From a virus (taxonomy: Duplodnaviria; Heunggongvirae; Uroviricota; Caudoviricetes): a DNA stretch of 19,681 nucleotides. The stretch covers positions 1-19,681 of the IMG/VR virus record IMGVR_UViG_3300049919_000280; one strand, given 5' to 3'. Made by a program: the position numbers and the translations under genes. Under the pieces are notes generated by a model, which made no database searches, was not told the origin of the DNA, and was given only the letters and a program-made list of their open reading frames with translations. Each line of letters begins with the position of its first letter. Position 1 is the stretch's first letter. This document shows positions 4,383 through 19,681 of this stretch, one piece after another.

Positions 4383-4385
4383 TAT

Positions 4386-5146: not shown

Positions 5147-5153
5147 GCTCCTC

Positions 5154-6310: not shown

Positions 6311-6336
6311 CTTTACACATACACAGGAGAAATATT

Positions 6337-6733: not shown

Positions 6734-6813
6734 CGTCCCCAAATTTTTGTTTTACTTTTTATTATTTTTCTTCCCTTCCCGAAGGGTTCTAATGTATTTA
6801 TTGAGGAGTTTTC

Positions 6814-7377: not shown

Positions 7378-7406
7378 TTGACATCGGTCAGAGTCTCTGA
7401 TATATT
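7378..7406 (+). promoter_or_regulatory. Sigma70-like promoter overlapping a hairpin
   Basis: TTGACA-17 nt-TATATT; the -10 box lies in the loop of the 10-bp stem 7388-7397/7408-7417. Confidence 0.65.
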
Positions 7407-7437
7407 TGGGGCTCTGATTTAAACTATGAGGAACAAA

Positions 7438-7605
7438 ATGGAAACTTTTCAGCTATACAGAAACACCGTGAAGTGGAAGAAGGTTAAGGCAAAGTCTTTT
7501 GAAGAAGCTATTGGATTGGCAAGAGACCAGATTCAATGGTTTAAAACTGATTATTTTGAGATTAAGACCAAGGACGGTCGGCTTCTTCCGGTGTCACACC
7601 TATGA
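7438..7605 (+). CDS. Small hypothetical protein (55 aa)
   Basis: GAGGA RBS; METFQLYRNTVKW...PVSHL; the stop overlaps the next ATG. Confidence 0.7.
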   Translation: METFQLYRNTVKWKKVKAKSFEEAIGLARDQIQWFKTDYFEIKTKDGRLLPVSHL

Positions 7606-7784
7606 TCGACTCTATCGGCAGCAAAGACTGCAGGGCATATCACCCAGCGTTAGATAAGATCGACGTAATTAAGGTCGTTATCGATGAAGTTTTGACAAAG
7701 TTGTATGCATCAGAACCAGAATTCGATGGAGAGAACATATACGAGGTGGTTTGCATTCTTGAGGATTTGAAGAAAAAGCTTTAG
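7602..7784 (+). CDS. Hypothetical protein
   Basis: 60-aa ORF with an ATGA overlap. Confidence 0.65.
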   Translation: MIDSIGSKDCRAYHPALDKIDVIKVVIDEVLTKLYASEPEFDGENIYEVVCILEDLKKKL

Positions 7785-7834
7785 AATCAATAAGTTATGT
7801 TGTAGTTGACATCGAATAAAAATTCAGATAATAT
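7785..7834 (+). promoter_or_regulatory. IHF-consensus site plus sigma70-like promoter
   Basis: AATCAATAAGTTA (7785-7797) matches WATCAANNNNTTR; TTGACA(7806)-17 nt-TAATAT. Confidence 0.7.
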
Positions 7835-7864
7835 TGCATTTCTGATTTGGACTGAGGAATAATT

Positions 7865-7948
7865 ATGAAATCCCTTATTGTGGAAACAATTCTTCTGATG
7901 GCAACCGTTGGTTCCATCCTTTTTGTAGTCATTTCTGTGGGGAATTAA
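7865..7948 (+). CDS. Small hydrophobic peptide (27 aa)
   Basis: GAGGA RBS; MKSLIVETILLMATVGSILFVVISVGN. Confidence 0.55.
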   Translation: MKSLIVETILLMATVGSILFVVISVGN

Positions 7949-7950
7949 TC

Positions 7951-8136
7951 TTGAAAAAATATATTGTGATTCAGGGCGCTGTGCTGGAGGAATTCTCCCA
8001 GCACGTAAATGAGCGCATTAAAGAAGGATACGTGCCAATTGGTGGGGTGCATGTTATTACGTTTTATCCGGACAACAAGAATTACACGCAGAAGCAGTAT
8101 TCGCAGGCTATGATCATCGACCAACCCGAGGAGTAA
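7951..8136 (+). CDS. DUF1737-like small protein
   Basis: TTG start; the Y..I......F...V...I.EGY.PIGGV...YSQAMI pattern resembles DUF1737 (recalled). Confidence 0.65.
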   Translation: MKKYIVIQGAVLEEFSQHVNERIKEGYVPIGGVHVITFYPDNKNYTQKQYSQAMIIDQPEE

Positions 8137-8140
8137 CTAT

Positions 8141-8347
8141 ATGCTTTCAACATTTTTTCATTCAGTCAAGATGCAATCCGGTAAATATCGCCAAAAAGTC
8201 AAGGCTGAAATGGATCAGCAACGAGGGGCATTCCGAAAGGAGTGTCCCACATTAACTGAGAAGCGTGCTGCTGCCATTGAGTATCTTGGTGAAAATTGGA
8301 TTCTCGCAAAGCAGTCACAGAAACTCCCCGTTATGCGTAGGGTTTAA
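8141..8347 (+). CDS. Hypothetical protein
   Basis: 68 aa with a GAGGAG RBS. Confidence 0.75.
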   Translation: MLSTFFHSVKMQSGKYRQKVKAEMDQQRGAFRKECPTLTEKRAAAIEYLGENWILAKQSQKLPVMRRV

Positions 8348-8703
8348 TGATGGGAAAGGTTATTCTATCCAAGGAAGAATTCATCGAAGTAATCTCCTCC
8401 TTTGAGGAGGAGAGCGCCATCGCTATTGAGTTGAATAATGTATTGCAGAAACTCACTAGCGAAAATGTGATCTTCTCTCTAGTGTCTGATCGATATTCAA
8501 GCGCAGGATATATCCTACTCCGCGCCGCTCTTGGTGGGGAGGCTAACTTCGATACTGTAACGTGGTGGATGTATGACACCAAATGTCATTCCACTGGAAT
8601 CCGCAAGGCACTTTCATACGACACCATCGATGGAAAAGAGATCGAGTACGACCTCAGCGACATTGGGGCTCTTTACGATTACTTAGTTATGATTAGTGCA
8701 TAA
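8347..8703 (+). CDS. Hypothetical protein
   Basis: 118 aa; the start overlaps the upstream stop. Confidence 0.75.
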   Translation: MMGKVILSKEEFIEVISSFEEESAIAIELNNVLQKLTSENVIFSLVSDRYSSAGYILLRAALGGEANFDTVTWWMYDTKCHSTGIRKALSYDTIDGKEIEYDLSDIGALYDYLVMISA

Positions 8704-9246
8704 ATGTTAGATAACAGAACCCAAGTTGTGTTCGATGTTGAGACCTTGGCCACATCAACCGATGCATGTATCGTGTCGATAGGTGCGGTCAAGTTTTCCT
8801 TATCAAATGGAATCTCAGAGGAATTCGTAATCAACGTCGACGCCAATGATTGTAAACGTCATGGGCTGGTCATTGATCCAAAAACTGTTGCTTGGTGGAT
8901 GGAGCAGCCTGCGGAGACTCGCAGGACTTGGATGCGGAACCCCGTCTCACTAGCTGATGCTTTGGCTGCGTTTAATGATTGGTATGGAGTAAAATCATTA
9001 CCCACATGGGCTAAGGGCGGAAAAAGATTCGACTTTCCTATTATGGAAAATGCATATGATAAAACGGGAATCAAAGCCCCGTGGCATTATCGCGATTGTT
9101 TGGATTATCGAACGATCATAACTGCTCTTGGAATTGATGACCTGAAACTCAAGACTGTCGGATCGACGTACCATTCTGCTTTGGATGATAGCAAGGAGCA
9201 GTGTAAGGTTCTTCTTCCTATTCTTCAGGCGCTGCATCAGGATTAA
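8704..9246 (+). CDS. DEDDh 3'-5' exonuclease (T4 DexA / Rv2179c-like)
   Basis: VFDVETL (ExoI), WAKG..FDFPIM (ExoII) and YHSALDD (ExoIII) motifs. Confidence 0.88.
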   Translation: MLDNRTQVVFDVETLATSTDACIVSIGAVKFSLSNGISEEFVINVDANDCKRHGLVIDPKTVAWWMEQPAETRRTWMRNPVSLADALAAFNDWYGVKSLPTWAKGGKRFDFPIMENAYDKTGIKAPWHYRDCLDYRTIITALGIDDLKLKTVGSTYHSALDDSKEQCKVLLPILQALHQD

Positions 9247-9256
9247 TTTCGTTTGA

Positions 9257-9307
9257 AATCAAGGAGTTACGTGATTAGTTGCGCGACTCCTTTTCTTTTG
9301 TTAAAGT
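9257..9307 (+). promoter_or_regulatory. IHF-consensus site plus sigma70-like promoter, overlapped by a terminator-like hairpin
   Basis: AATCAAGGAGTTA (9257-9269); TTGCGC(9279)-17 nt-TAAAGT. An AAGGAGT/ACTCCTT stem followed by TTCTTTT covers the same bases. Confidence 0.55.
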
Positions 9308-9338
9308 GGATACATCAACTTCACAACGCGATATAAAA

Positions 9339-10067
9339 ATGAACAACCTTTCCGACATTGTAATCAAGTATAACGATAGCCAGAAAACCTACATTGCCTA
9401 CTTCAAGGGTATTGAAATCTGCCGTCGCAAGACACCGCAGTCCCTGAAAGAAAATATCTGCAAGAAACTTGAGATTACAGGGACTCGTGCTCTGATGGTT
9501 CAGGGTATGATTCTCCCGAATATCCCTAAATCTGTTAAGCAGCCAACTTTCCCGAAGATGGATTTGACATTTAAGATAATTGCTAAGGTAGAAGAGGTTC
9601 GCTTGCAATCGCTTAAATTGTGGCCTAATGCTATGACTAGCCAAATCAATGTTGATTTTTTCAACACGACTAAAGTCGCTGGTTGGGCGTTTCCTTCAAG
9701 GAATATGGTTAAGTTCAATACGGTGCTAGCGGAAGAGAATTGGGATCACTTTGATGAAACTATTCGACACGAAATCGCACACCTTATCGCATTCAAGGTT
9801 TATCCTAGACTGAAACAGGCCCATGGCCCAGAATTTCGTTCGGTTTGCCAAGCTTTAGGTGGTAGCGGAAGGACTTTTCACTCGTATGATATCTCATCGG
9901 TTCGTTCTGGTCGGACTTATAATCGATTCGAAGGAAAGTGTGCTTGTATGACGCATGGGGTGACAAAGGCAACCGCAGATAAGATTAAAAAGTATAATCA
10001 GACTACCTGCAGACGTTGTAAGAGCAAGGTCGTTCTTACCGGAAATATGATAACCATTAAGAAATGA
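9339..10067 (+). CDS. SprT-like zinc metalloprotease with an N-terminal extension
   Basis: HEIAH zinc motif, HGPEFRSVCQALGG, and C-terminal CAC...H and CRRC motifs. Confidence 0.88.
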   Translation: MNNLSDIVIKYNDSQKTYIAYFKGIEICRRKTPQSLKENICKKLEITGTRALMVQGMILPNIPKSVKQPTFPKMDLTFKIIAKVEEVRLQSLKLWPNAMTSQINVDFFNTTKVAGWAFPSRNMVKFNTVLAEENWDHFDETIRHEIAHLIAFKVYPRLKQAHGPEFRSVCQALGGSGRTFHSYDISSVRSGRTYNRFEGKCACMTHGVTKATADKIKKYNQTTCRRCKSKVVLTGNMITIKK

Positions 10068-10073
10068 GGCTAT

Positions 10074-10301
10074 ATGTCGATTCAAATTAAGGTCGGACAG
10101 CTTCAAGATATTGAGGCGAGAATAAAACACCTGCAGCAACATGCCGAGACTGCGTGGGCAAGAGGTTATCAGATGGGAGTTGAATCTAATAAGCAAATTG
10201 CATTGCAAGCCACCGCAGCACTTGCTATGGAACGGGAGGCGCATGCTGAAACAAACGCAAGAATGACGGAAGCTCTGATTCAGATGGAGAATTCAAAATG
10301 A
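10074..10301 (+). CDS. Hypothetical coiled-coil protein
   Basis: 75 aa with a GAGG RBS. Confidence 0.7.
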   Translation: MSIQIKVGQLQDIEARIKHLQQHAETAWARGYQMGVESNKQIALQATAALAMEREAHAETNARMTEALIQMENSK

Positions 10302-10570
10302 GTGGTGGAAGTTTTGACTATGCATATTGCAAGGCAGGCCAATTCGCCGACGACCTTGGCCTTCGATTGGATGAGGTTGATAAGGTAGACGAATGGGGAG
10401 AAATGCCAAACAAGGTATGCCCAGAAGCGTATGGAAAGCTTCGTGAAATTGAAAGAATTGTTCGGCAGACTGCAGTCCTCATGAGAGAAGTGGAATGGTT
10501 GTATTCCGGTGATACTTCAGACGAATCTTTCCTGCAGCGAATTGATGAAATAACAGAAAAGTGGTTGTAA
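10298..10570 (+). CDS. Conserved phage hypothetical protein
   Basis: MSGGSFDYAY N-terminus and EW..SGD tail, a pattern seen in many phages; ATGA overlap. Confidence 0.8.
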   Translation: MSGGSFDYAYCKAGQFADDLGLRLDEVDKVDEWGEMPNKVCPEAYGKLREIERIVRQTAVLMREVEWLYSGDTSDESFLQRIDEITEKWL

Positions 10571-10593
10571 GAAGGTGGTTTCCGTAGTATAAT
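10565..10593 (+). promoter_or_regulatory. Sigma70-like promoter
   Basis: TTGTAA-17 nt-TATAAT. Confidence 0.6.
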
Positions 10594-10623
10594 ATAATTT
10601 TAATCAACTCAAAGGATAAATAC

Positions 10624-10824
10624 ATGTCAAGCAAACAAACAAAGGCCGCACCAGAGCATCGCAAACCAGTTCTTCAAATGCCAAAGTATTACAAGCGAAT
10701 CATCGCTTTCATGACTGGCGAAACGAAGAACGCATATAAGAAACTTATTATGCAGGCGCTTCGAGAAGAGAAAGAATCGAAGGAAGCACGCCAGAAGGAA
10801 TCTGCGAAAAAGGCTCGGGAATAA
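10624..10824 (+). CDS. Small basic hypothetical protein
   Basis: 66 aa with an AAGGA RBS. Confidence 0.75.
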   Translation: MSSKQTKAAPEHRKPVLQMPKYYKRIIAFMTGETKNAYKKLIMQALREEKESKEARQKESAKKARE

Positions 10825-10829
10825 TACTC

Positions 10830-10856
10830 GGAGGGGTAATCCCCTCCTATTATTTT
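10830..10856 (+). terminator. Probable intrinsic terminator
   Basis: GGAGGGG-TAAT-CCCCTCC followed by TATTATTTT. Confidence 0.55.
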
Positions 10857-10877
10857 GGTCATAATCGAGGTAGTAAA

Positions 10878-11459
10878 ATGAAAATATCCAGCGTAGTGTT
10901 GGCGGCAGTTTTGTCGCTCGGGATTTTTATGGTTTCCAATCAGGTTAAAAAGGCAGAGCCAGTTATACTTACGCCTGAAATCGTTGCACCAAAAAAAGTT
11001 GAACGTCCATTATCCACGTCACAGAAAAAGAACTTCGCTATCATCACGGACACATATAATGTCAGTGAAGTTCTTGTGAAGGATGTCTTGCATTATGTAG
11101 ATAAACATGCGGATAAGGTATTTCCGCGAAGGGAAGATATTCTAGCGATCATTGGAATCGAATCTAGCTGGAACCCAAAGGCTAGGTCTAATCTCAAGTA
11201 TGATCCTGCCCTCGGACTCACGCAAATACGACCAAAGACATGGTCTTCGCTGATATCTCATCCAGATGAGCTGAACGTAGTAGAAAACCAGATTCGATAT
11301 GCCGCCAAGATATTGAAATATCAGTATCGATTGACAAAAGACAAAGATGCTGCTATCATTGCATATAATGCTGGGTATGGTAATTGGTTGAACGGAAATT
11401 ATGGGTTTGATTACTTACTCAAATTCAAAGAAGAACTTAGTCGATACCAAACTGTTTGA
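10878..11459 (+). CDS. Lytic transglycosylase (SLT domain) with an N-terminal membrane anchor or signal
   Basis: IIGIESSWNPKA (catalytic Glu), ALGLTQI and AIIAYNAG motifs; hydrophobic N-terminus. Confidence 0.9.
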   Translation: MKISSVVLAAVLSLGIFMVSNQVKKAEPVILTPEIVAPKKVERPLSTSQKKNFAIITDTYNVSEVLVKDVLHYVDKHADKVFPRREDILAIIGIESSWNPKARSNLKYDPALGLTQIRPKTWSSLISHPDELNVVENQIRYAAKILKYQYRLTKDKDAAIIAYNAGYGNWLNGNYGFDYLLKFKEELSRYQTV

Positions 11460-11463
11460 GGAT

Positions 11464-11652
11464 ATGATGAGAGACATTACGACAAAAGAATATGCTGATG
11501 CAATACCAAAGTGCTGTGCATATCAGACCGTCGAGGATCATTCTGATGCCCTAGGTCTTTGCTGGGGCTTAGCTTCGGCACTGAAGTCAGGGATAGAAAT
11601 GGATTGTAGTGGATGTGAATTTAATACTCTTGACGAAAAGTATAGGAAATGA
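11464..11652 (+). CDS. Small Cys-rich hypothetical protein
   Basis: GAGGA RBS at 11458-11462 favours the ATG at 11464 or 11467 over the track's 11401; CC...C...CSGC. Confidence 0.65.
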   Translation: MMRDITTKEYADAIPKCCAYQTVEDHSDALGLCWGLASALKSGIEMDCSGCEFNTLDEKYRK

Positions 11653-12359
11653 TTATCCACTCCAAGTTTCACGATTATTACGATACCGCGTTATCTCATG
11701 GTCGTGACGAAACCCTACACTTCACTAGGGCAGCAGAGGAATCCGTTCTCGATCATAAAGACACCTTCTTAGATTTTCTGCCTGACACATTAACCAAATA
11801 TGGCTTTCGTAGGGATAAACTTCGATGCCATTATGGGTATGTTTCTGGCCCGTTTATAAAGCAATTCATCATCGGATTTTGTGGGAAGATATACGCTGGT
11901 GAGGCGATAGCCAACCATTCGCATTACCCAGAGCCGATGCGGGATGAATTCTTCTACTGCGGATACAATTACGACAAGCTTGATGCTAGCCTAAAGGCCG
12001 CAAAATTCAACTGCCGAGATTTTGATAGTCGAGGAACAAATAAACTGGATTCATTCGCAAAGATTGAGACTGTTGACCCCTTCATTGGGTTGAATGTTCC
12101 ATATTTTTCTGTCGTTGCCCATCGGGATAAAATTATATTGACGAAGCTGCCGAAATTGCAGAATTACGGATTCCAGAAGATCGTTGATCCTTACACCGCA
12201 ATGCAGGAGATAAGTATGTTCGTCGGTGGAGTTTTGCCTAGACAAACAAAAGAATTGATTAATATCAGCGATGCGGATCGCATTAATCAATATGGATTTA
12301 ACGAGAACTCGTTTCGCCATCCAGTGAAACTTAGTCAGCTTTATGGGAAGAATAAATGA
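11649..12359 (+). CDS. Conserved phage hypothetical protein
   Basis: MIIHSKFHDYYD N-terminus, IIGFCGKIY, and DPYTAMQEISMF...SD.DRI..YGF...SFR C-terminus; a widespread phage family of unknown function. Confidence 0.8.
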   Translation: MIIHSKFHDYYDTALSHGRDETLHFTRAAEESVLDHKDTFLDFLPDTLTKYGFRRDKLRCHYGYVSGPFIKQFIIGFCGKIYAGEAIANHSHYPEPMRDEFFYCGYNYDKLDASLKAAKFNCRDFDSRGTNKLDSFAKIETVDPFIGLNVPYFSVVAHRDKIILTKLPKLQNYGFQKIVDPYTAMQEISMFVGGVLPRQTKELINISDADRINQYGFNENSFRHPVKLSQLYGKNK

Positions 12360-12847
12360 TCACATTCAAACAATATCTTGAAGAGAAGACCCAGCAAGCC
12401 TTCACAGGAACCAGCGGGTGCTACTGTTCGATGCTACTGTCTCCGGACTCGGTGAAGGCGCTTGAACAATTATGCAAATCGATTTCACTGCCATTCACAG
12501 AAACCGAAGAAATCCATTGCACCGTAATTTACTCGCCTGACGATGTACCAAAATCGATTCCTGTGCCAGCAGACATGCCGATCATCGGGAAAGTTACCGG
12601 ATTTGAATTGTTTGGCCCTGATAAGGACTGCCTTGTTGCCCTTATTGACTCTCCGGAGCTAGCCACATTAAATAAACAATTCATCGAGCAGGGTGCGGTA
12701 TCAACGTACCCAGAATACCGACCACATGTTACAGTAGCCAAAGTTGCAGACGGTAATGTGATACCTGCACATAAACCGTTTAGTCCAATCGTTCTGAAGT
12801 TCGTTTCGATGACAATCGAAGATATCACCAAAAAGGAAACCACATGA
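12356..12847 (+). CDS. acb1: 2H phosphoesterase, T4 gp57B / anti-CBASS Acb1-like
   Basis: Two HxT motifs (IHCTVIYS, YRPHVT). G.Y...S..S..ALE.L, V..DS..L and GA...Y..Y are collinear with the recalled T4 57B sequence. It lies near the tRNA cluster, as in T4. Confidence 0.82.
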   Translation: MITFKQYLEEKTQQAFTGTSGCYCSMLLSPDSVKALEQLCKSISLPFTETEEIHCTVIYSPDDVPKSIPVPADMPIIGKVTGFELFGPDKDCLVALIDSPELATLNKQFIEQGAVSTYPEYRPHVTVAKVADGNVIPAHKPFSPIVLKFVSMTIEDITKKETT

Positions 12848-13110
12848 GCAAAATCGTAATTATGAAACTAACAACAAATGATGAAGTTATCGCCGAAGAG
12901 GTTGGTTGCGACAAGTATGCTAGACCACGAGTTCTACAGGTTATGCAAACAGAGGCTGGTTATCAACCAGCGTTATCCCCATGGCTAATTTCTTCGCCAG
13001 AAGAAACCGTGGAAATCTCAGACAAGTTCGTCGTCACGAAACTCGAAGCATCAATGGATATTGATCGGGCATATCGTCAACAGACCTCACGCATTCAGCT
13101 GATGGGCTAA
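12844..13110 (+). CDS. Conserved T4-like small protein, probable Sm/LSm-like beta-barrel
   Basis: KLTTNDEVIA...P...L.PW......V.I....VV...EA...I...Y pattern. Confidence 0.6.
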   Translation: MSKIVIMKLTTNDEVIAEEVGCDKYARPRVLQVMQTEAGYQPALSPWLISSPEETVEISDKFVVTKLEASMDIDRAYRQQTSRIQLMG

Positions 13111-14039
13111 TGCCAAAAATCCTAGTTATCGACTCCCACAAGTCTGGGAGCGAAAATGATATCGTACAAAATCTACACTGGAAAAATGCCCAGATAATCT
13201 CTGAGCATTTAGGAGCAGATTTTGTATGGTCATATCCGTTCGTAAATAAGCGAGTTAAATCTGGATATGATGTAATTATATTCAACCACTCATCGCCATA
13301 TTCGTTTATGGATATGGCTTGGCTTGAGGAAAATCCATCCGCCAAGATATTTTTCGTCACCAATGAATATAATCTCGGTGAGGATATGATGATGTGGAAA
13401 TATTGCAAAGAGCATAATAAAAAATTCCATGTTATAGCAAACCACCCACAGGCTGCTAGTAAGGTAGTCAAATACTTAACCGAGTCGTGGCACATCGTAA
13501 ATTTGAACTGCCTCATCATAAAAGAAACTCCAAGTGCATTTCCGTTTTTCAGAGATATGGATTCTGCGGTATATTATGGATCGTTTCGGAAGGATCGAGT
13601 TGAGTATATTCGGAAATATGCCGATCAGGTTATAATCAGCACACATCAAAAAAACTTAGAGCGATTTGCCGACGTTGGAATGACAAAGTTCAAGACCATG
13701 GAGCGAGTCGATGTTAATAATGGATTGGGTGTATTCGGGGCATCCTTGTATATCGAGGACAAGAAGACCCACAAGAATTATAACTTCCTCGCAAATCGGT
13801 TTTACGAAGCACTTAACGCGAATATCCCGATGATGTTCGATCTTTCATGTAAATCTACGATGGATAAGAGTGGATATGACATTGAGAACTTCTTGCTTAC
13901 TGGTTCGGTGAAAGACAAGCTAGATGAATACTCTAATAATGCTGACGATATATTATCGCAACTTGCTGATCTTAGAATTCGTGCGGTTAGGGAAAAGAAG
14001 GAAGTTTTGCGAGAGATTTCCCGAATGATAAATACCTAA
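13110..14039 (+). CDS. GT-B glycosyltransferase resembling T4 DNA beta-glucosyltransferase
   Basis: VYYGSFRKDR corresponds to T4 BGT IYGGSFRSGQR. ASLYIEDKKTHKNYNFLANRFYEALNANIPMMFD corresponds to AALIIGDKNYNDNFITLRVWETMASDAVMLID (recalled). Confidence 0.7.
   Translation: MPKILVIDSHKSGSENDIVQNLHWKNAQIISEHLGADFVWSYPFVNKRVKSGYDVIIFNHSSPYSFMDMAWLEENPSAKIFFVTNEYNLGEDMMMWKYCKEHNKKFHVIANHPQAASKVVKYLTESWHIVNLNCLIIKETPSAFPFFRDMDSAVYYGSFRKDRVEYIRKYADQVIISTHQKNLERFADVGMTKFKTMERVDVNNGLGVFGASLYIEDKKTHKNYNFLANRFYEALNANIPMMFDLSCKSTMDKSGYDIENFLLTGSVKDKLDEYSNNADDILSQLADLRIRAVREKKEVLREISRMINT
14028..14034 (+). promoter_or_regulatory. T4-type late promoter core
   Basis: ATAAATA about 35 nt upstream of the 14071 ORF; the same TGATAAATA recurs at 16839. 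Confidence 0.55.
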
Positions 14040-14070
14040 TAGGATTGATTAAACTGACTCTGGAGTTATT

Positions 14071-14418
14071 ATGCCATACTTTTCTGAAGATTTTATTAAT
14101 ACCATCAAAGGCGTGAATTTGATGGAAGCAAATGCTAAACCAAGAAGTTTGGCAGATCATGTTGATACAGCAAACTCATGGGCAATGGGAGGTGGAGAGC
14201 ACAAAGGTGCACTCTTGACTTTCGGCACTCATGGTGGGCAGGTGCATGACGAAGACCACCGCAAACGTTTGCTTGGGGAAATCGGTAAGAATTTGGGCGT
14301 CGTCAATTCAAACAGGCACGTCTCTGAATATAATGGCGAGGCGGAAAAACTCTCTTCCCTTCAAGATTATGTCAAGGGAGCCAAGATTTCTCCAATTAGC
14401 GAATACAAGAAAAAATGA
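14071..14418 (+). CDS. Probable virion internal (head) protein
   Basis: Follows a late promoter; His/Lys/Glu-rich; the short N-terminal segment ends in LME, a gp21-type cleavage motif. Confidence 0.55.
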   Translation: MPYFSEDFINTIKGVNLMEANAKPRSLADHVDTANSWAMGGGEHKGALLTFGTHGGQVHDEDHRKRLLGEIGKNLGVVNSNRHVSEYNGEAEKLSSLQDYVKGAKISPISEYKKK

Positions 14419-14744
14419 ATCTAACAGAAGCCAAGGCAATTGCCGCAGGAATAAAAGAGGAAGTTGTCCATGCGGATTTGCTCATGGCTAACGCAAAGGA
14501 CAGTCACGAGAAATATCAGAAGGCGATTAATGCCCTTGGCGAAAAACACCCCGAGACCAAGAAGCTGAAGACTTCTCATGAAGCACATAGCAAGGCGTTC
14601 CATGACCATGTTGCAAAGGCGACTGAGAACGAAATGAAGGATGCCGAACACAATCGAATGATTCAGACTATCAGTGCTGTTGCTGATGGCGAAGCTAAAA
14701 TAAAACACGGATTCGCTCCGGCGCAGAATAACCAAATCAAATGA
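14415..14744 (+). CDS. Probable virion internal (head) protein
   Basis: MNLTE N-terminus; helical and His/Lys/Ala-rich; ATGA-coupled. Confidence 0.55.
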   Translation: MNLTEAKAIAAGIKEEVVHADLLMANAKDSHEKYQKAINALGEKHPETKKLKTSHEAHSKAFHDHVAKATENEMKDAEHNRMIQTISAVADGEAKIKHGFAPAQNNQIK

Positions 14745-14899
14745 ACTACCGCGAAGCTAAAGACATCGCGGTTTCCGAACTCACAGACCCGATTGACTTC
14801 TTCGGCGCCTCCTTCGGTTTTTGTTTTTCGTCCGACTGCGTTCCGCAACCAGACGTGAATCGACTACAAAATCATTTTACCGCACTTGTTCTTGGATAA
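14741..14899 (+). CDS. Small hypothetical protein (52 aa)
   Basis: ATGA overlap; MNYREAKDIAVSELTDPIDFFG...TALVLG. Confidence 0.55.
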   Translation: MNYREAKDIAVSELTDPIDFFGASFGFCFSSDCVPQPDVNRLQNHFTALVLG

Positions 14900-15021
14900 G
14901 TGAATTTACAAGCAAATTCAGATAGGGATACAACTTTGATGGCTCTTCACCACCTTCCAACATCTCCAGTTCAGATGCCAACCTGCGATTATATGGCTAT
15001 TTGTATTTATCATAATAATTT

Positions 15022-15058
15022 ATCAGCGGAGCTAAAGGCTCCGCTGATTTCTCTCTTT
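15022..15058 (+). terminator. Intrinsic terminator-like hairpin
   Basis: Perfect 11-bp stem ATCAGCGGAGC-TAAAG-GCTCCGCTGAT followed by TTCTCTCTTT. Confidence 0.65.
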
Positions 15059-15076
15059 ACCGAATAAGGAACCACG

Positions 15077-16825
15077 ATGACAACTAAACGCACTTTTAGA
15101 TTCCATATCAATAACTCTTCCCCACGGGAAACTGAAGTTCAAATGGCGCATCTTGACGAATTTGAAAACATTCCTACTGTTGGCGGGAAAAAGGGTGTCG
15201 TATCAGAGGCAATCGAATCTGATTCTGAGCATGCAGGAAGATTAACATTCCATGCTGACGGAAAATCTGCTAGTGGGACTGGTGCTACGTCGCTTAGCGT
15301 ACCTAAGCACATGTGGGAAACCGGTAAGGCCCACGTTGGTATGGATGAACGCAATGCCGCTCGTGCTGAAGTTTATGGTAGTGAGCATCGTGAGCCCCTT
15401 GGTATCGGTGAAGTTGAGCGGAAGCATAAGGATGCACTCAAAGAACACTTTGCGCTACCAAAGAGTGAACAGATTGCTCGCGAAAAGGCTGCAGTAGCAA
15501 AACTAAAGGCTGCTAAGCATCTTGGATCAGATGGCAGAACTACAGCAGACAGCGAAAAGACTGACTCGATCAAACATGAGCATGATGAGAATGGTAAAAA
15601 CTATAACGCATCTGCATGTAAGCATGTTGCTGGTCACGCTGTTTATACTTCTGGTGCTGGAGAAGAGCAAAAACATCATATTCTCAACACCTGCCCCGGC
15701 CAGACTAGCGGATGTGGTGGTGGAGTAGATTCCAGCGGAAAGGCAGACGTTCGTAAAGGCGCATGTTTCGCTCATAATGCCGAAGTACAATACCCCCACG
15801 CTGCTGTAAACAGAGCAGCAAACACTCAGGCGATGCACGACCCTGCTATGACTCACGACTGGCTATTGTCGCACGTCCATAGCGTTAGAAACGATGCAGA
15901 GAAGTCAGACAAAAGTAATCAGCGCCACGTTGTTCGCCCAAACACTCTTGCTGAAAATGATAGATCGACCCGTCATGTCCTAAAGCATCTTAATGCGCAG
16001 AGAAAATCTGAGGGTAAAGATAGCGTTATCTCATATCAATACAGCAAGACGAACGCACTCAATGATCCTGAGAATGATCACCACGTCACATATTCCAACA
16101 CCGGACCAAAGGTTAAAAATGGTGGAACGATTGCCGAAAACGTTGGTAGAGATAAAACACGAGTTAGACAGACAATCACTTCAACTGACTCAAACAATGA
16201 GAAGATTAAGAACGACGAAGGCAAAGAAGTTCCTGCTAAGCACTCATATGTTGTTCATAACCTTAGACGTGGCGGCGAAGAAGAAAGTGAATTTGCTAAG
16301 CATGTTAAGTCTGCTAGGTATTGGGATAGTGGAACGAAGGAAGAGCATCAGACCGAGGCGGAGAAGAGTCTTCCATCAGAGGGGCATTACGACCACGAAG
16401 GTAAGCCAACCGATGCCGAGCATGCCCACACAGGTCATATGAAAGTCAATGGAACGCTGTACAAGTATCATAGACAGCATGTACTTCATGGTCTGAACAG
16501 AGTTGTTAAGGTTAATGGACATGACACCCCATCAGATGCTAGATTCAAAGATGATGCATATCTTCCAAAGGATCGGTATAAATCAAGCAAGGGCGTGCAT
16601 GGTGCTATTGTTGCCACTTCACCTACTCTATCAACCAATCTTGATAAAACTGCGAAGAGTGAGTTTACTCATGATGCAAAGGGTGTTGCAGAAAAGGCCA
16701 AGCATAATGGTGGAGTTTGGGATATCGATCATCCGCATGATCAGGAAGCCGCTAAGGGTAAAGTTTATTCGCAAGCAACTCCTGTGGATATCAGTGGCCT
16801 GAAGAGCAAGAAGAAAAAGGTTTGA
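15077..16825 (+). CDS. Large His/Lys-rich protein with a Gp88-like Cys motif; possibly virion-packaged
   Basis: 582 aa with an AAGGA RBS. TCPGQTSGC...ACFAH...YPHAAVNRAAN resembles the Gp88-family TCPG-x-C...CYA motif (recalled). Confidence 0.55.
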   Translation: MTTKRTFRFHINNSSPRETEVQMAHLDEFENIPTVGGKKGVVSEAIESDSEHAGRLTFHADGKSASGTGATSLSVPKHMWETGKAHVGMDERNAARAEVYGSEHREPLGIGEVERKHKDALKEHFALPKSEQIAREKAAVAKLKAAKHLGSDGRTTADSEKTDSIKHEHDENGKNYNASACKHVAGHAVYTSGAGEEQKHHILNTCPGQTSGCGGGVDSSGKADVRKGACFAHNAEVQYPHAAVNRAANTQAMHDPAMTHDWLLSHVHSVRNDAEKSDKSNQRHVVRPNTLAENDRSTRHVLKHLNAQRKSEGKDSVISYQYSKTNALNDPENDHHVTYSNTGPKVKNGGTIAENVGRDKTRVRQTITSTDSNNEKIKNDEGKEVPAKHSYVVHNLRRGGEEESEFAKHVKSARYWDSGTKEEHQTEAEKSLPSEGHYDHEGKPTDAEHAHTGHMKVNGTLYKYHRQHVLHGLNRVVKVNGHDTPSDARFKDDAYLPKDRYKSSKGVHGAIVATSPTLSTNLDKTAKSEFTHDAKGVAEKAKHNGGVWDIDHPHDQEAAKGKVYSQATPVDISGLKSKKKKV

Positions 16826-16840
16826 CCTGTTTCGAAAATG

Positions 16841-16847
16841 ATAAATA
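16841..16847 (+). promoter_or_regulatory. T4-type late promoter core
   Basis: ATAAATA upstream of the 16871 short ORF. Confidence 0.5.
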
Positions 16848-16870
16848 AGTAATCACAACAAGGAATTTAC

Positions 16871-16981
16871 ATGAACACACTTTTTGGAACAAATGGTAAG
16901 ATTGAAGGCGGATTTGCTATAACGGCAAACCCCACCTATAATCCATCCTACCCAAATAGTGAGAGATTTTCTCTCAGGTAA
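16871..16981 (+). CDS. Short ORF (36 aa), possible leader peptide
   Basis: AAGGA RBS; MNTLFGTNGKIEGGFAITANPTYNPSYPNSERFSLR. Confidence 0.55.
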   Translation: MNTLFGTNGKIEGGFAITANPTYNPSYPNSERFSLR

Positions 16982-17008
16982 AGACTAAGTTTCAGGAATC
17001 CAATTCCG

Positions 17009-17044
17009 AGTCCCTTAGTCGAAAGATTAAGGGACTTTTTCTTT
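17009..17044 (+). terminator. Intrinsic terminator
   Basis: AGTCCCTTAGTC-GAAA-GATTAAGGGACT stem followed by TTTTCTTT. Confidence 0.85.
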
Positions 17045-17060
17045 GTTGGATGTCTTTGAG

Positions 17061-17111
17061 AATCAACGAGTTACGAAATAGGTTGACATGGTTTGTGGAT
17101 GTAGGTAGAAT
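17061..17111 (+). promoter_or_regulatory. IHF-consensus site plus sigma70 promoter for the tRNA/ncRNA cluster
   Basis: AATCAACGAGTTA; TTGACA(17083)-17 nt-TAGAAT. Confidence 0.8.
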
Positions 17112-17132
17112 TCAGTTGTCGGTGCAGTAAAC

Positions 17133-17145
17133 GTTCTTTAAAATT
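17133..17145 (+). promoter_or_regulatory. rrn-type boxA antitermination motif, copy 1
   Basis: GTTCTTTAAAATT versus E. coli rrn boxA (T)GCTCTTTAACAATTT; lies just downstream of the predicted transcription start. Confidence 0.6.
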
Positions 17146-17150
17146 AATGT

Positions 17151-17239
17151 GGGTGATTGGTAGAGATGGATTATTGCACCAGTCTTGAAAACTGGCGTTC
17201 CGAAAGGGACCGTAGGTTCGAATCCTACATCACCCGCCA
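17151..17239 (+). tRNA. tRNA-Ser(TGA)
   Basis: GGGTGAT/ATCACCC acceptor stem, CCAGT-CTTGAAA-ACTGG anticodon arm, long variable arm, TTCGAAT T loop, G73 and encoded CCA. Confidence 0.95.
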
Positions 17240-17242
17240 CAT

Positions 17243-17317
17243 ACTGCTGTCGTCTAGTGGCTAGGACACTTGGTTTTCATCCAAGTAAAGTGGGATCGAA
17301 ACCCATCAGCAGTACCA
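17243..17317 (+). tRNA. tRNA-Glu(TTC)
   Basis: ACTGCTG/CAGCAGT acceptor stem, CTTGG-TTTTCAT-CCAAG arm, atypical ATCGAAA T loop and encoded CCA. Confidence 0.92.
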
Positions 17318-17333
17318 GTTCTTTTACAATTTA
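17318..17333 (+). promoter_or_regulatory. rrn-type boxA motif, copy 2
   Basis: GTTCTTTTACAATTTA. Confidence 0.6.
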
Positions 17334-17446
17334 AAATCTTTCGATGCATGGTGCTAGGGAGCTATCAGATATACCTTCAAGGTAGCCGCGAGGTTCTGGT
17401 GCGCAGGTCAAATGGGTTCGAATCCCACGAAAGATTTTAAATTGTA
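17325..17446 (+). ncRNA. tRNA-like structured RNA in a 19-bp terminal stem
   Basis: Perfect TACAATTTAAAATCTTTCG/CGAAAGATTTTAAATTGTA stem. A T arm (TGGG-TTCGAAT-CCCA) is stacked on it. The core has a TACC-TTCAA-GGTA hairpin and a GCC-GCGA-GGT hairpin. No CCA. Confidence 0.65.
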
Positions 17447-17454
17447 GTAGAATT

Positions 17455-17529
17455 GCCGGTTTAGCTCAGTGGTAGAGCAACCGCCTTGTAAGCGGTAGGT
17501 CGTCTGTTCAATCCAGACAACCGGCACCA
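17455..17529 (+). tRNA. tRNA-Thr(TGT)
   Basis: GCCGGTT/AACCGGC acceptor stem, GCTC D stem, ACCGC-CTTGTAA-GCGGT arm and encoded CCA. Confidence 0.95.
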
Positions 17530-17542
17530 AAATATGTAGTAG

Positions 17543-17593
17543 AATCAACGAGTTACGAAATAGTTTGACAAGAAATACCGAAGTCGATATACT
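17543..17593 (+). promoter_or_regulatory. IHF-consensus site plus sigma70 promoter
   Basis: AATCAACGAGTTA (identical to the 17061 copy); TTGACA(17565)-17 nt-TATACT. Confidence 0.8.
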
Positions 17594-17612
17594 GGCTTCA
17601 CTGAAACAAAAC

Positions 17613-17628
17613 GTTCTTTTACAATTTA
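17613..17628 (+). promoter_or_regulatory. rrn-type boxA motif, copy 3
   Basis: GTTCTTTTACAATTTA, about 15 nt after the predicted transcription start. Confidence 0.6.
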
Positions 17629-17787
17629 ATGATTCTCGGAAACATATTGTGGCGCTCGTTGCGAAACGTAGCTGTGATATGCGGATAAGACAGTAGCTGG
17701 GTTGGAATAGAGTCCTTTAGTGCCGTCAAGGTCGAAAGATACAGCGGAGAACACGTTCCCAGTGAAGCAGAGAATTATTAAATTGTA
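17620..17787 (+). ncRNA. Unidentified structured RNA in an 18-bp terminal stem
   Basis: 17620-17637 pairs with 17770-17787 (one G-U). Internal hairpins include CATATT/GATATG, CTGGG/CCCAG and GTC-GAAA-GAT. Confidence 0.6.
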
Positions 17788-17796
17788 GTAGAATCA

Positions 17797-17813
17797 TGTT
17801 CTTTAAAAATTTA
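17797..17813 (+). promoter_or_regulatory. rrn-type boxA motif, copy 4
   Basis: TGTTCTTTAAAAATTTA. Confidence 0.6.
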
Positions 17814-18225
17814 GATAAGTTGTGTGGAAGGTATGCTTAGAAGCAGCAATCCTTTAAAGAGTCGGGCAAAGGCAGTTCGCAGAAACACATAAGCGATAGT
17901 GATCGGTCTTAAAAATCTGATCGGCGTAAGGACATACGTTGGGATCACACCCACGAAATCGGCTGAAAAGTGAAATAGGTTACAGTCAAGACCATACACG
18001 GGGTCACAACGGGGGGCGAAAGCAGCCTCAAGGACAAGCTCGGAACTTGTTGAGACATAGTAACACGCCAAGGTAGCATCGCAAACTACTGAAGGCAATG
18101 GGGTTGCTCCCCTGATCACGAATGGCGGCTGAATCACTTGGTAAAGTACGGAGGCACCCCAGAAATGGTAAGGCTGAAGTCCTGTTTGGTCGTAATAGCA
18201 CACCACATAACTTATCTAAATTTTT
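17805..18225 (+). ncRNA. Large ncRNA containing a 23S rRNA H43-H44 (uL11-binding domain) mimic with a ~326-nt insert
   Basis: 23-bp terminal stem 17805-17827/18203-18225. Bases 17827-17862 match 23S 1055-1090, and 18191-18203 match 1092-1104, with compensatory pairs. Confidence 0.8.
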
Positions 18226-18228
18226 GTT

Positions 18229-18244
18229 CTTCTTTTACAATTTG
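18229..18244 (+). promoter_or_regulatory. rrn-type boxA motif, copy 5 (variant)
   Basis: (GTT)CTTCTTTTACAATTTG. Confidence 0.5.
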
Positions 18245-18249
18245 AACGC

Positions 18250-18343
18250 ATTACAAACTTGTCTGGTAAGTTAAACGTTAGACTACTATGCATGGGAATG
18301 GATAGGGTATTGGGCGACAATCCGATGCAGACAAGTTTGTAAT
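18250..18343 (+). ncRNA. Unidentified structured RNA in a 16-bp perfect terminal stem
   Basis: ATTACAAACTTGTCTG/CAGACAAGTTTGTAAT encloses a 62-nt core with two hairpins. Confidence 0.55.
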
Positions 18344-18363
18344 ACACTTTCTAACGAGAGTGT
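18343..18363 (+). repeat. Spacer hairpin repeat, copy 1
   Basis: TACACTTTC-TAAC-GAGAGTGT; 20/21 identical to 19316-19336. Confidence 0.7.
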
Positions 18364-18375
18364 AGATTAAAGTGA

Positions 18376-18451
18376 GGTTGTCCTGTCGTTTAACTCTAGG
18401 ACGCTTGGCTCATAGCCAAGAAATGCTGATTTTGATTCAGTCCAGACAACT
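18376..18451 (+). ncRNA. Degenerate tRNA-like element (CAT anticodon)
   Basis: GGTTGTC/GACAACT acceptor-like stem, CTTGG-CTCATAG-CCAAG arm and GCTGA-TTTTGAT-TCAGT T-like arm. There are 3 extra nt before the acceptor 3' strand and no terminal CCA. Confidence 0.55.
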
Positions 18452-18463
18452 TTACCCGTTTTA

Positions 18464-18538
18464 CGATGCTCATAGCATAATGAGAATGTGACCGGCACTG
18501 AGGTCGGGAGATACGTGGCTAGAACCCATGGGGCATCG
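18464..18538 (+). ncRNA. Degenerate tRNA-like element (irregular anticodon loop)
   Basis: CGATGCTC/GGGCATCG stem, GCAT/ATGT D-like stem, CCGGC-ACTGAG-GTCGG arm and CGTGG-CTAGAAC-CCATG T-like arm. No CCA. Confidence 0.5.
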
Positions 18539-18544
18539 CAGGAT

Positions 18545-19084
18545 GGGCGCATAGCTCAGTTGGTTAGAGCACTCGACTCATTAATAGTAATATTGTGCAC
18601 CACCGAAAAATGCACTGGTAGTCTTCAGGAGAAGGCTAAGCTCCCTTTCCCGTTGAGCAATCATCGGTAACAGCATCCCCTCCGACGCTGGCGTAACAGT
18701 GCAATCGAAAGACGGTAAAACAACGTAAAGGATGTTTAAGGGCAACCGTAAAGCATTGTGTATCGTTGGGTGAATTTCTTCAAAGTCGGCGAACGCTAAA
18801 TCACAAAATTTTGTGATATGCCAACGCCGAGCCAAGCTTAACAATCCTAAAATATAGTTGAAAATCTAGCCACGTCGTGGAAAAACAGGGATTGTTAAGA
18901 AGGTGTAGAGGCTTGACGGAGAATACCTAAAGCAAAGTAATAGCTAAGGTAAAGACAAAGTCCAGACCACGAACAACAGCATGGTGAAATCGAAAGAGAG
19001 TAGTCACAAAGTGCAGAGTTGGCGTTGAAAAACGAAGTGGTACGAATCGATTGGTCGTAGGTTCAAGTCCTACTGCGCCCACCA
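18545..19084 (+). tRNA. tRNA-Ile2(CAT), split by an intron (exons 18545-18581 and 19045-19084)
   Basis: The joined exons give a 77-nt cloverleaf: GGGCGCA/TGCGCCC acceptor, CTCGA-CTCATAA-TCGAT arm, TTCAAGT T loop, A73 and CCA. The body resembles bacterial Ile2 (GACTCATAATCG..TTGGTCG), though Met cannot be fully excluded. Confidence 0.85.
18582..19044 (+). mobile_element. Group I intron (463 nt, no ORF) after anticodon base 36
   Basis: The 5' exon ends in U and the intron ends in G. P1 is CAU/GUG with a U-G wobble (18579-81/18595-97). P3 is 18776-81/18918-23, P4 is 18786-91/18825-30, P7 is GGCTT/AAGTC (18910-14/18958-62), and P8 is TACCT/AGGTA. Confidence 0.9.
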
Positions 19085-19094
19085 AAGCATTTAA

Positions 19095-19144
19095 AATCAA
19101 AGAGTTAGAAATTCCTTGACTCGTGATTGGTATTCGAATATAAT
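19095..19144 (+). promoter_or_regulatory. IHF-consensus site plus sigma70 promoter
   Basis: AATCAAAGAGTTA; TTGACT(19116)-17 nt-TATAAT. Confidence 0.8.
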
Positions 19145-19158
19145 TGATTCTGTTGTAG

Positions 19159-19316
19159 GAAATAAGAGAGTTTGGTGGATGTTGCTAACAGACAATTCTG
19201 TTTAAAAGGTCAGGTGAGAAGCTTGGGTAATCTGTGGGACGCACCCCATGGGCCTTTTGTCTAGTAACGTGATTGATACTCACGGACGCGACTTTATCAA
19301 CACCAGACTCCCTTAT
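19159..19316 (+). ncRNA. Unidentified multibranched structured RNA
   Basis: Closing stem ATAAG-A-GAGTTTGGTG/CACCAGACTC-C-CTTAT. Nested stems are ATGTTGCTA/TAGTAACGT, AAAAGGTC/GGCCTTTT, GTGGG/CCCAT and TTGATA/TATCAA. Confidence 0.6.
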
Positions 19317-19336
19317 ACACTTTCTAGCGAGAGTGT
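19316..19336 (+). repeat. Spacer hairpin repeat, copy 2
   Basis: TACACTTTC-TAGC-GAGAGTGT. Confidence 0.7.
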
Positions 19337-19459
19337 GTTTAGATTAGTGCCGCACTTGCATGGTGGCAGACGCTTGGGAAGTAGTCTCCTTAATTGGATA
19401 AAGATGACACCCATGGACTCGAAAGGGCAGTTACACTCGAGAGCGGCACTAATCTAAAC
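19337..19459 (+). ncRNA. Unidentified structured RNA in a 17-bp perfect terminal stem
   Basis: GTTTAGATTAGTGCCGC/GCGGCACTAATCTAAAC encloses an 89-nt branched core. Confidence 0.6.
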
Positions 19460-19681
19460 CCTGAAAGATAACACGCCGTCAAACCGTGATGTTGAACACA
19501 GACATAGGTGCTGTGCGAATCGGAAGATAAATTAAATGGCGATTGCAATGAGTAGGGGTTCCTAATTTGACCGTTATCCAAAGCAATGGATTCCCGCCCG
19601 ATACATTACGGATCGTCCTTCGGTGGTGTATATGAGAAAGCAAAGGTAAGGGTGCCGCAAGAGTAAGATGACGTGAGGTGG
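19460..19681 (+). ncRNA. Further structured non-coding RNA, truncated by the window end
   Basis: No credible ORF. Stems include GTCAAA/TTTGAC, CACAG/CTGTG, TAGG/CCTA and ATACATTAC/GTGGTGTAT. Confidence 0.45.

Follow-up and report, generated by a model that had tools for sequence, protein, structure and literature searches.

A phage RNA family whose ends resemble the GTPase-associated centre of 23S ribosomal RNA

Why would a phage carry, in the midst of its tRNA genes, what looks like a piece of the ribosome's own RNA in two halves? The question is raised by a locus in a stretch of 19,681 nucleotides (nt) from a tailed phage (Caudoviricetes), positions 1 to 19,681 of IMG/VR virus record IMGVR_UViG_3300049919_000280, which we refer to as the window. 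An initial annotation of this DNA had described a phage RNA at 17805–18225 that rebuilds the uL11-binding domain of 23S rRNA, the GTPase-associated centre (GAC). We find that the element at 17804–18226 on the + strand (423 nt) is best explained as a gene for a stable non-coding RNA and that, judged by sequence, its clamped ends reproduce the GAC secondary structure (E. coli 1051–1108) together with the sequence signatures of the tertiary fold. The parts of the element, with rRNA positions numbered as in E. coli 23S, are as follows.

17804–17827, + strand: 5′ strand of the closing stem, which stands in for helix 42 (H42); its last pairs correspond to 1052–1055/1104–1107
17827–17862, + strand: copy of 1055–1090, with helix 43 (H43), the A1067 loop (A1067 is 17839), the 1082–1086 turn and the 5′ strand of helix 44 (H44)
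17863–17866, + strand: 5′ strand of helix P0 (CGGG), which closes the insert directly after U1090 and pairs with 18181–18184
17867–18147, + strand: variable insert domain of about 280 nt, starting with the joiner C-AAAG and ending with the joiner AAGU, both conserved
18148–18180, + strand: arm M, a conserved hairpin arm of the insert, identified by covariation and a model match of 43.6 bits
18181–18188, + strand: 3′ strand of P0 (CCUG, 18181–18184), then a UUUG linker (18185–18188) into H44
18189–18203, + strand: copy of 1091–1104, the H44 hairpin with the A1095 loop (A1095 is 18194)
18203–18226, + strand: 3′ strand of the closing stem, which makes 24 pairs with zero mismatches

For comparison we fetched the 23S sequence of E. 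coli K-12 rrlH. The 58-mer that the initial annotation had used is exactly rrlH 1051–1108, and both of the strings it quoted were found where it had placed them. The first, 17827–17862, is identical to E. coli 1055–1090 at 28 of 36 positions, with mismatches at 1056, 1058, 1061, 1062, 1076, 1080, 1089 and 1090, and the second, 18191–18203, is identical to 1092–1104 at 12 of 13 positions, with a sole mismatch at 1101. The compensatory swaps that it listed also hold: 1058–1080 goes from U-A to G-C, 1062–1076 from G-C to U-A, and 1090–1101 from A-U to U-A, and the pairs 1052–1054/1105–1107 are altered on both strands relative to E. coli. Every helix difference between the window copy and E. coli is in fact compensatory. 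A perfect long stem does bring the two segments together, as described, and it has 24 bp when 1055–1104 is counted rather than the 23 claimed. The window copy has an extra U (18190) between G1091 (18189) and C1092, which is absent from all other members examined; an independent DNA run reproduces 18092–18242 without difference, extra U included.

Local alignment of the 5′ half to 23S rRNA scored 42, compared to at most 28 in shuffles, and when 50-nt tiles over 16.9–27 kb of the genome were compared to E. coli 23S, 16S, and 5S rRNA, no other tile reached 30. Genuine 23S reads part from the window sequence right after 17862, and alignments of the flanks and interior to E. coli rRNA show no further similarity, which agrees with the earlier statement that no rRNA lies in the flanks. 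The window was also examined for a continuation into adjacent parts of 23S (H41–H42 upstream, H45 downstream, 1090 joined to 1091), and none was found. We built a covariance model from 30 members of the family, leaving the window out; in the window it matched only this locus, where it found the two halves in their proper order on the + strand (5′ half, 49.7 bits, E 1e-11, 17822–17954; 3′ half, 43.6 bits, E 3e-10, 18047–18208), and the 423-nt element folds better than 100 of 100 shuffles (z = −4.1). No Rfam 15 model covers the element, whether at gathering scores or at E ≤10 over 17530–18720, no Rfam family matches this RNA, and no description was found in the searchable full-text literature. 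A catalogue of 10,006 candidate viral structured RNAs reports no rRNA-like candidate and may hold the motif unnamed (PMC10690425).

Relatives of the element allow selection on its structure to be assessed. Core statistics come from 80 distinct family cores, part of the set having been collected with a pattern in which 1066–1067 and 1069–1075 are fixed and 1068 is restricted to A or G. Since some columns are set by the collecting patterns, invariance is partly ascertainment; the covarying columns are unaffected. The pair 1058–1080 is G-C in 42 cores, A-U in 24, U-A in 13, and C-G in one, and the lone pair 1082–1086 is U-A in 57, C-G in 10, and A-U in seven. Likewise, 1064–1074 is C-G in 75 and A-U in five, 1055–1104 is G-C in 70 and A-U in 10, 1057–1081 also covaries, and the 1091–1100 pair is kept. 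The tertiary pair U1060/A1088 is invariant, G1071/(G1091-C1100) is kept in 79/80 cores, and U1066 and A1069–G1071 are at least 89% conserved in the collected cores. The base triple C1072/(C1092-G1099) switches as a unit to U/(U-A) in members L062 and L131 and in the more divergent L060 and L065, with L021 as the exception among members (L-numbers label the loci of family members or blastn matches); the U/(U-A) form is reportedly an alternative known from rRNA itself.

RNAalifold, run on 30 members, recovered the end of H42, H43, and the H44 hairpin without guidance. With a 30-pair structure laid on the 30-member alignment, 97.5% of cells were paired, compared to 78% for shuffles, 20 pairs had double changes, and the covariation score was 0.576, compared to 0.20 for shuffles and at most 0.15 when partners were slid. 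In the closing stem, 100% of cells were paired, with double changes in 6/6 counted pairs. Covariation preserves the H42 end, H43, H44, the lone pair 1082–1086, and the base triple 1072/(1092-1099), and homologues keep both halves; the initial annotation's view of a selected structure rather than a captured rDNA scrap is borne out.

The family was collected from cultured and uncultured phages. In cultured phages, blastn found both halves, unannotated and adjoining tRNA genes, in Pseudomonas phages pf16 and Astolliot and Aeromonas phage 4_4572; full copies were read in Xanthomonas phage XacN1 and Cronobacter phage GAP32, and 5′-half matches were found in Pseudomonas phages UNO-G1W1 and Milchi and Pectobacterium phage CBB. 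The hosts of these carriers belong to five genera of Gammaproteobacteria (Pseudomonas, Aeromonas, Xanthomonas, Cronobacter, and Pectobacterium). In IMG/VR, a 25-nt pattern from the 5′ half matched 51 contigs and a pattern from the conserved 3′ module of the insert matched at least 118, the two scans together giving more than 150 distinct contigs. Wherever a 5′-half match could be traced to its 3′ half, it was followed by an insert of 45–338 nt and never by the 23S continuation; after the insert came UUU(G/A), a copy of 1091–1104, and then a strand complementary to the bases before the 5′ half. The closing stem ranges from 3 to 33 bp across the family, usually 6–12 bp, and its sequence is free beyond about 1053/1106 and always complementary. 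A family-specific A1101 makes U1090-A1101 fixed in place of the bacterial combinations.

A search of 185,579 species genomes with the module pattern and the 3′ half returned 12 contigs, nearly all from metagenome bins and several of them phage-sized; the family is phage-restricted and near-absent from cellular genomes. Paenibacillus phage Pd_22F (L179, MZ092003.1, ~83.0–84.9 kb) was excluded, as at least 440 nt of it read as genuine 23S through H44 and beyond; this stretch may have been truly captured by the phage, or it may be host DNA that entered the assembly. Some 25 short 'phage' blastn records, most of them annotated 23S rRNA or short unannotated fragments, were likewise taken as genuine 23S.

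The initial annotation had left the interior as a mere connector between the halves. This does not fit the family, in which the insert is obligatory, sits at a fixed site, and has a conserved module of its own. Its position, between U1090 and G1091, is the same in every copy, and no insert-free version of the phage-type sequence was found in IMG/VR. At 326 nt, the insert of the window is the third longest among 85 distinct copies. Double changes occur across the family at each of the four P0 pairs, with 100% of cells paired, and UUU(G/A) precedes G1091 in nearly all members. The variable domain differs in length and sequence among members and has no similarity to E. coli rRNA; in the window it includes a hairpin at ~18092–18105 that is common to other long-insert members.

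Arm M begins with helix Px (2 bp, 18148–49/18179–80), stacked on P0, followed by a purine loop (GGA/GAA), helix Pa (3 bp, 18153–55/18173–75), an invariant asymmetric loop (AC(C)/UAAG), helix Pb (3 bp, 18159–61/18166–68), and a GAAA tetraloop (18162–65). Covariation is seen in Px and in Pa, whose middle pair is G-C in 14 members, U-A in 14, and C-G in one. The tetraloop is GAGA, UAAC, UAAA, or UAAU in relatives, and the loop-closing pair covaries (G-U, G-C, U-A, A-U). Positions 18144–18180 fit the arm M subfamily consensus, which consists of an AAGUR joiner, CACCCC, the loop, and GGUAAGG, with a GNRA- or UMAC-like tetraloop. The probable role of this conserved arm, with its GNRA-like cap, is to steady the fold or to make a second contact. 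Four known motifs were tried for the internal loops of arm M without a clean fit (the 11-nt tetraloop receptor, the UAA/GAN motif, the kink-turn, and the C-loop), and the bases of these loops are invariant, so that covariation cannot decide motif identity. Mimicry of the sarcin-ricin loop (AAGUAC-GGAG-GCACC compared to AGUAC-GAGA-GGACC) was rejected, both because the alignment gives a different structure (Px, purine loop, Pa) and because the tetraloop of arm M varies whereas the GAGA of the sarcin-ricin loop is invariant. A second rRNA mimic was sought in tiles of the element and over 16.9–27 kb against E. coli 23S, 16S, and 5S rRNA, and nothing was found beyond the 5′ half of the GAC copy.

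Not all inserts are built in this way. The shortest, of 45–47 nt, are simple hairpins without arm M (L011, L013), and in GAP32 (L180, 288625–290457) and XacN1 (L181) the insert ends in another conserved module, AGACCCUUAGAG followed by N2-3 and UUUGG; the family has at least two different conserved insert modules. The RNA of XacN1 lies directly after a gene annotated as a 2′-5′ RNA ligase, and a terminator-like hairpin comes behind it. In L065 (IMG/VR 3300022468_000539, ~2700–3290), a second insert of ~170 nt lies inside H43 (~1079–1081) in addition to the insert at 1090/1091, which indicates that the H43 stem also tolerates expansion.

How is such an RNA likely to be made? Among the 85 distinct copies, 42 lie within 200 nt of a tRNA gene, and where a locus holds a tRNA the median nearest distance is 11 nt. 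All 324 of the 324 tRNA genes within 3 kb of copies are on the strand of the element, which fixes that strand and argues for co-transcription and for release by tRNA-processing enzymes. The lineage of the window departs from this pattern and carries candidate signals of its own.

17565–17593, + strand: candidate sigma-70-type promoter-like site (TTGACA, 17 nt, TATACT), with 11 of 12 consensus matches
17614–17627, + strand: boxA-like TTCTTTTACAATTT, directly after the promoter-like site, 12/14 identical to the E. coli rrnH leader boxA CTCTTTAACAATTT
17799–17812, + strand: boxA-like TTCTTTAAAAATTT, abutting the closing stem and overlapping its first 9 nt, 12/14 identical to the E. coli 16S–23S spacer boxA CTCTTTAAAAATCT
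18230–18243, + strand: boxA-like TTCTTTTACAATTT, directly behind the element and before the next structured RNA
19231–19252: terminator-like site downstream of the small-RNA genes

A transcript from the promoter-like site would start near 17600 and cross the small-RNA genes. The boxA-like sequence TTCTTTWAMAATTT occurs four times in the window (17319–17332, 17614–17627, 17799–17812, and 18230–18243), compared to 0.15 occurrences expected by chance, and each copy sits between stable-RNA genes. The relative L151 has a 33-bp stem, the same order of promoter, boxA, and stem, and the same motif before a tRNA gene; boxA flanks the element in only these two of the 85 distinct loci. By analogy, the boxA-like motifs and the 24-bp flanking duplex suggest an imitation of the way in which 16S and 23S rRNA are transcribed and excised (Nus antitermination, RNase III).

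At the RNA level, a freshwater metatranscriptome yielded one contig of 151 nt that matches 17989–18139 at 98% identity with a depth of 3, a weak hint of expression. Another RNA run (X17) gave no cover over the flanking genes at a depth of ~3, an absence without weight. Very high depth at 17829–17862 in two libraries labelled metatranscriptomic, one of them flagged as probably DNA, is due to the real 23S of other organisms, as shown by GCGTAATAGCTCAC in the continuation of the contigs.

The element is one of several unannotated structured RNAs in a cluster of stable-RNA genes that runs from 17.1 kb onward with everything on the + strand. The source record is a 98.8-kb IMG/VR virus record, ~45% complete, whose nearest public sample is a freshwater sediment metagenome and whose gene content is that of a large T4-type phage (T4 RNase H, PhoH, lysis enzymes). 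The tRNA genes of the cluster that lie in the window are listed here; after the first three, seven further tRNAs follow as far as 26.1 kb of the genome.

17151–17529, + strand: tRNA-Ser, tRNA-Glu, and tRNA-Thr
18546–19088, + strand: tRNA with a CAU anticodon and an encoded CCA end, its anticodon loop split by a group I intron of ~460 nt

ARAGORN misses the split gene, which has its 5′ exon at 18546–18583 and its 3′ exon at ~19045–19088; the Rfam Intron_gpI model matches inside it at 18725–18985 (56.4 bits), and tRNA contigs of other organisms join both exon halves directly (joints 18564–18580 to 19051–19058). Directly after the GAC-like element, 18250–18343 forms a 15-bp stem closing three small hairpins in a cloverleaf-like four-way junction (−34.2 kcal/mol, z = −5.1, 0/200 shuffles equally stable), for which no match was found in Rfam. 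Farther on, 18379–18449 is tRNA-like, with a CAU anticodon loop and two mismatched acceptor pairs, and its score of 28.9 bits falls just below the threshold of the Rfam tRNA model (29); the sequence may represent a non-canonical tRNA or one in decay. Upstream, the unit between boxA-like motifs at 17628–17800 has a 10-bp closing stem and folds no better than shuffles (z = 0.08), which leaves its status as a structured RNA doubtful. Beyond the window, at 24680–25468 of the genome, the RNA-gene cluster also holds a TROVE (Ro60) gene; such a gene is present in only four of 49 carrier genomes, and a general link of the GAC mimic to Ro60/Y RNA was rejected for this reason.

What might a free-standing GAC do for a phage? 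On the ribosome, the C-terminal domain of uL11 recognises exactly this tertiary fold, uL11 is needed for the activation of RelA, and uL11 is among the exchangeable ribosomal proteins. EF-G, for its part, is said to bind oligonucleotides of the thiostrepton domain on their own in vitro. The GAC is small and folds autonomously, and its tertiary fold is required for binding by L11 (PMC6239185); a clamped copy that keeps the determinants of the fold should therefore be able to bind ligands of the ribosomal site. No homologue of uL11 above the Pfam cut-off was found in any of the 49 carrier genomes, and all-against-all clustering of 943 open reading frames from 85 loci gave no protein family present in more than eight loci and no recurrent neighbour. 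With no phage uL11, no protein gene that travels with the RNA, and hosts in five genera, the partner should be a conserved host component. The rRNA-like part alone is common to all members and the inserts are interchangeable, which places the function in the rRNA-like part. The stalk proteins uL10/bL12, which the initial annotation had offered as possible targets of titration, are unlikely partners because they need the proximal part of H42, which is not copied here.

We tentatively favour the reading that the RNA may serve as a sponge for host uL11, possibly with EF-G or RelA, off the ribosome, and regard this as a real possibility that stops somewhat short of being probable. The RNA would be transcribed together with phage tRNAs and other small RNAs, in this phage from a host-type promoter and through rrn-type boxA sites, and RNase III would probably excise it within the 24-bp stem. 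It would then fold alone into a free-standing uL11-binding domain, act in trans, and bind up a ligand whose usual partner is this domain of the 50S subunit, most likely host uL11, with or instead of a translational GTPase or RelA. Depletion of uL11 would leave ribosomes unable to activate RelA, a relaxed phenotype in which the infected cell mounts no stringent response. The broader proposal, that large phages use a miniature 'rrn operon' to make a GAC copy that either strips or intercepts uL11 (possibly RelA/GTPases), with ribosomes no longer sensing amino-acid starvation and the stringent response disarmed, or else absorbs an immune effector, is one we hold with equal reserve, as plausible and just under the point at which we would call it probable.

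Several observations weigh against a uL11 sponge. Many of the invariant columns are partly fixed by the collecting patterns. Positions 1096 and 1097 of the H44 loop, nearly invariant in rRNA, vary in the family, and A1095 is kept in only 75/80 cores; given this variation, some of the ligands that H44 has on the ribosome cannot be the target. The insert, which is obligatory, interrupts H44 and may not leave the uL11 face free. In the window copy, moreover, the extra bulged U adjoins the base-triple pairs. A cell holds about 10^4 to 10^5 ribosomes, with which the RNA would have to compete, and its sole RNA-level trace, the 151-nt contig at depth 3, could be DNA carry-over.

The best-surviving alternative, which we consider unlikely but worth serious attention, is that the RNA is a decoy for an enzyme that attacks the ribosomal GAC, soaking up a host immune effector or a competitor toxin able to cut or modify H43/H44, so that working ribosomes are spared. 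Phage tRNA arrays are thought to counter tRNA-targeting defences, and this RNA sits in such arrays; a decoy would have its counterpart in the phage tRNAs that take over from, or outcompete, tRNAs attacked by anticodon nucleases. Mimicry is near-exact in the H43 loop, which is exposed and would be read for its sequence by an enzyme, and the TROVE gene of the same genome would suit such a setting. Toxins for this site exist, as Tre23 ADP-ribosylates H44 at 1095–1098 and blocks EF-G (PMC8661411). However, 1096 and 1097, within the Tre23 target, are variable in the family, and, to hold off a catalytic enzyme, a stoichiometric decoy must bind tightly or be present at very high copy number. The presence of Ro60 in so few carriers means that an RNA-repair setting is not general. 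No GAC-targeting anti-phage system turned up in literature searches, and we know of none aimed at this site.

A lower probability, such that we think it improbable, attaches to the idea that the GAC fold is a mere chassis, a compact Mg-stabilised three-way junction on which the insert does the work, with a target unrelated to the ribosome. The obligatory insert, with no insert-free phage-type copy in IMG/VR, the strong conservation and covariation of arm M, and the further hairpins shared by long-insert members would all be expected of a working insert. A scaffold needs shape only, however, yet U1066 and A1069–G1071 reach the conservation given above (in part fixed by the patterns); inserts go down to 45–47 nt without arm M, the GAP32/XacN1 subfamily has a different module, and the rRNA copy is the sole universal part.

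It is very improbable, in our judgement, that the locus is a processing or transcription device, in which the stem and boxA organise the maturation of neighbouring RNAs or titrate Nus factors and the core is incidental. The boxA-like motifs and long stems that flank several RNAs of the cluster, as in rrn operons, are what such a device would look like; against it, boxA flanks only 2/85 loci, stems are usually 6–12 bp, and the strong structural selection on the core exceeds the needs of a processing stem.

The idea that there is no functional RNA here, only decaying captured host rDNA or part of a minus-strand frame, draws on the genuine rDNA that phage records sometimes hold (as in Pd_22F) and on a stop-free minus-strand frame of 131 codons that spans the element (17811–18206), and it has next to no credibility when flanks and interior are not rRNA, when copies on more than 150 contigs share the 1090/1091 split and compensatory changes, a covariation that contradicts this reading, and when the neighbouring tRNAs are all on the + strand. 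The minus-strand frame was rejected as coding, as it has no match in Pfam; insert lengths over the 85 copies fall in all three residues modulo 3 (27, 18, and 40), and counts of stop-free frames are uninformative for sequences so short.

The phage GAC mimic would be a new kind of viral RNA, for which no earlier description was found in the literature searched and whose function we infer from sequence. Viruses copy tRNAs, antitoxin RNAs, and ribosomal proteins; this RNA, if the reading is true, would be the first case of a virus encoding a mimic of a functional rRNA domain. If it binds uL11 or translation factors, it would represent a new phage route to the control of translation and the stringent response as well as a natural 'ribosome-in-pieces' tool for the study of the GAC, and if it is a toxin decoy, it would point to an unknown class of bacterial immunity against this rRNA site. 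With more than 150 contigs from only two narrow pattern scans, the family is abundant, and its presence in cultured phages makes it open to direct bench testing. For annotation, it accounts for a recurrent 'empty' gap of 100–420 nt in phage tRNA clusters and cautions against taking every short rRNA-like match in a phage genome for contamination. The use of rrn-type boxA by a phage for a cluster of tRNAs and small RNAs would also be of interest for the recruitment or titration of Nus factors. To this picture the window contributes one of the longest inserts, a defined insert-arm structure, and an rrn-like expression context of boxA and long stem.

Among known systems, the closest is the bacterial 23S GAC itself, the 58-nt domain that binds uL11 and thiostrepton. 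The phage RNA has the same helices, A1067 and A1095 loops, and 1082–1086 turn, and it shares U1060/A1088, G1071/(G1091-C1100), and C1072/(C1092-G1099) with its known U/(U-A) alternative; over 1055–1090 and 1092–1104, the window copy is identical to E. coli at 40/49 positions. In contrast to the ribosomal domain, it is a free-standing gene with its own closing stem and no run-on into H42 or the remaining 23S, and it always has an insert at 1090/1091, a fixed U1090-A1101, variable 1096/1097, and no uL10-binding part of H42.

The arrangement in the window also recalls rrn operons, with which it shares boxA-like motifs (12/14 to the rrnH leader and spacer boxA) and a long perfect flanking duplex. 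Both features that we took to mark a candidate rrn-type unit, an upstream boxA and a flanking duplex of at least ~20 bp, are present in the sequence. Unlike in rrn operons, evidence of boxB or boxC is lacking, and the arrangement is seen only in the window and L151.

Autoregulatory leaders of ribosomal-protein operons (the L10 leader RF00557, L1, S8, S15, and L20) are likewise non-ribosomal RNAs that imitate an rRNA protein site, and the L10 leader imitates this same 23S region, for L10-(L12)4. These leaders act in cis in their own cellular operon and copy few contacts, whereas the phage RNA is trans-encoded among tRNA genes and copies a near-complete domain; at this locus there was no Rfam match at E ≤10 to such a leader and no ribosomal-protein gene nearby.

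Other structured phage RNAs resemble it in setting. GOLLD, ROOL, and HEARO are large structured phage RNAs near tRNA genes, in which we know of no rRNA-like domain, and neither these models nor those of other large phage RNAs in Rfam match the element even at E ≤10. The species 1 and 2 RNAs of T4 (rnaC, rnaD) are stable RNAs without assigned function in the tRNA cluster of a T4-type phage; they were rejected as homologues, neither GAC half being found in T4 70908–71171. Closest in the kind of action proposed is pseudo-ToxI of phage PhiTE, a phage RNA decoy (PMC3475682). Like pseudo-ToxI and phage tRNAs, the RNA described here is a phage non-coding RNA that would copy a host RNA to neutralise or bypass a host function, and the tRNA-array setting is shared; whereas those RNAs copy an antitoxin RNA or a tRNA, the GAC mimic copies a functional domain of rRNA.

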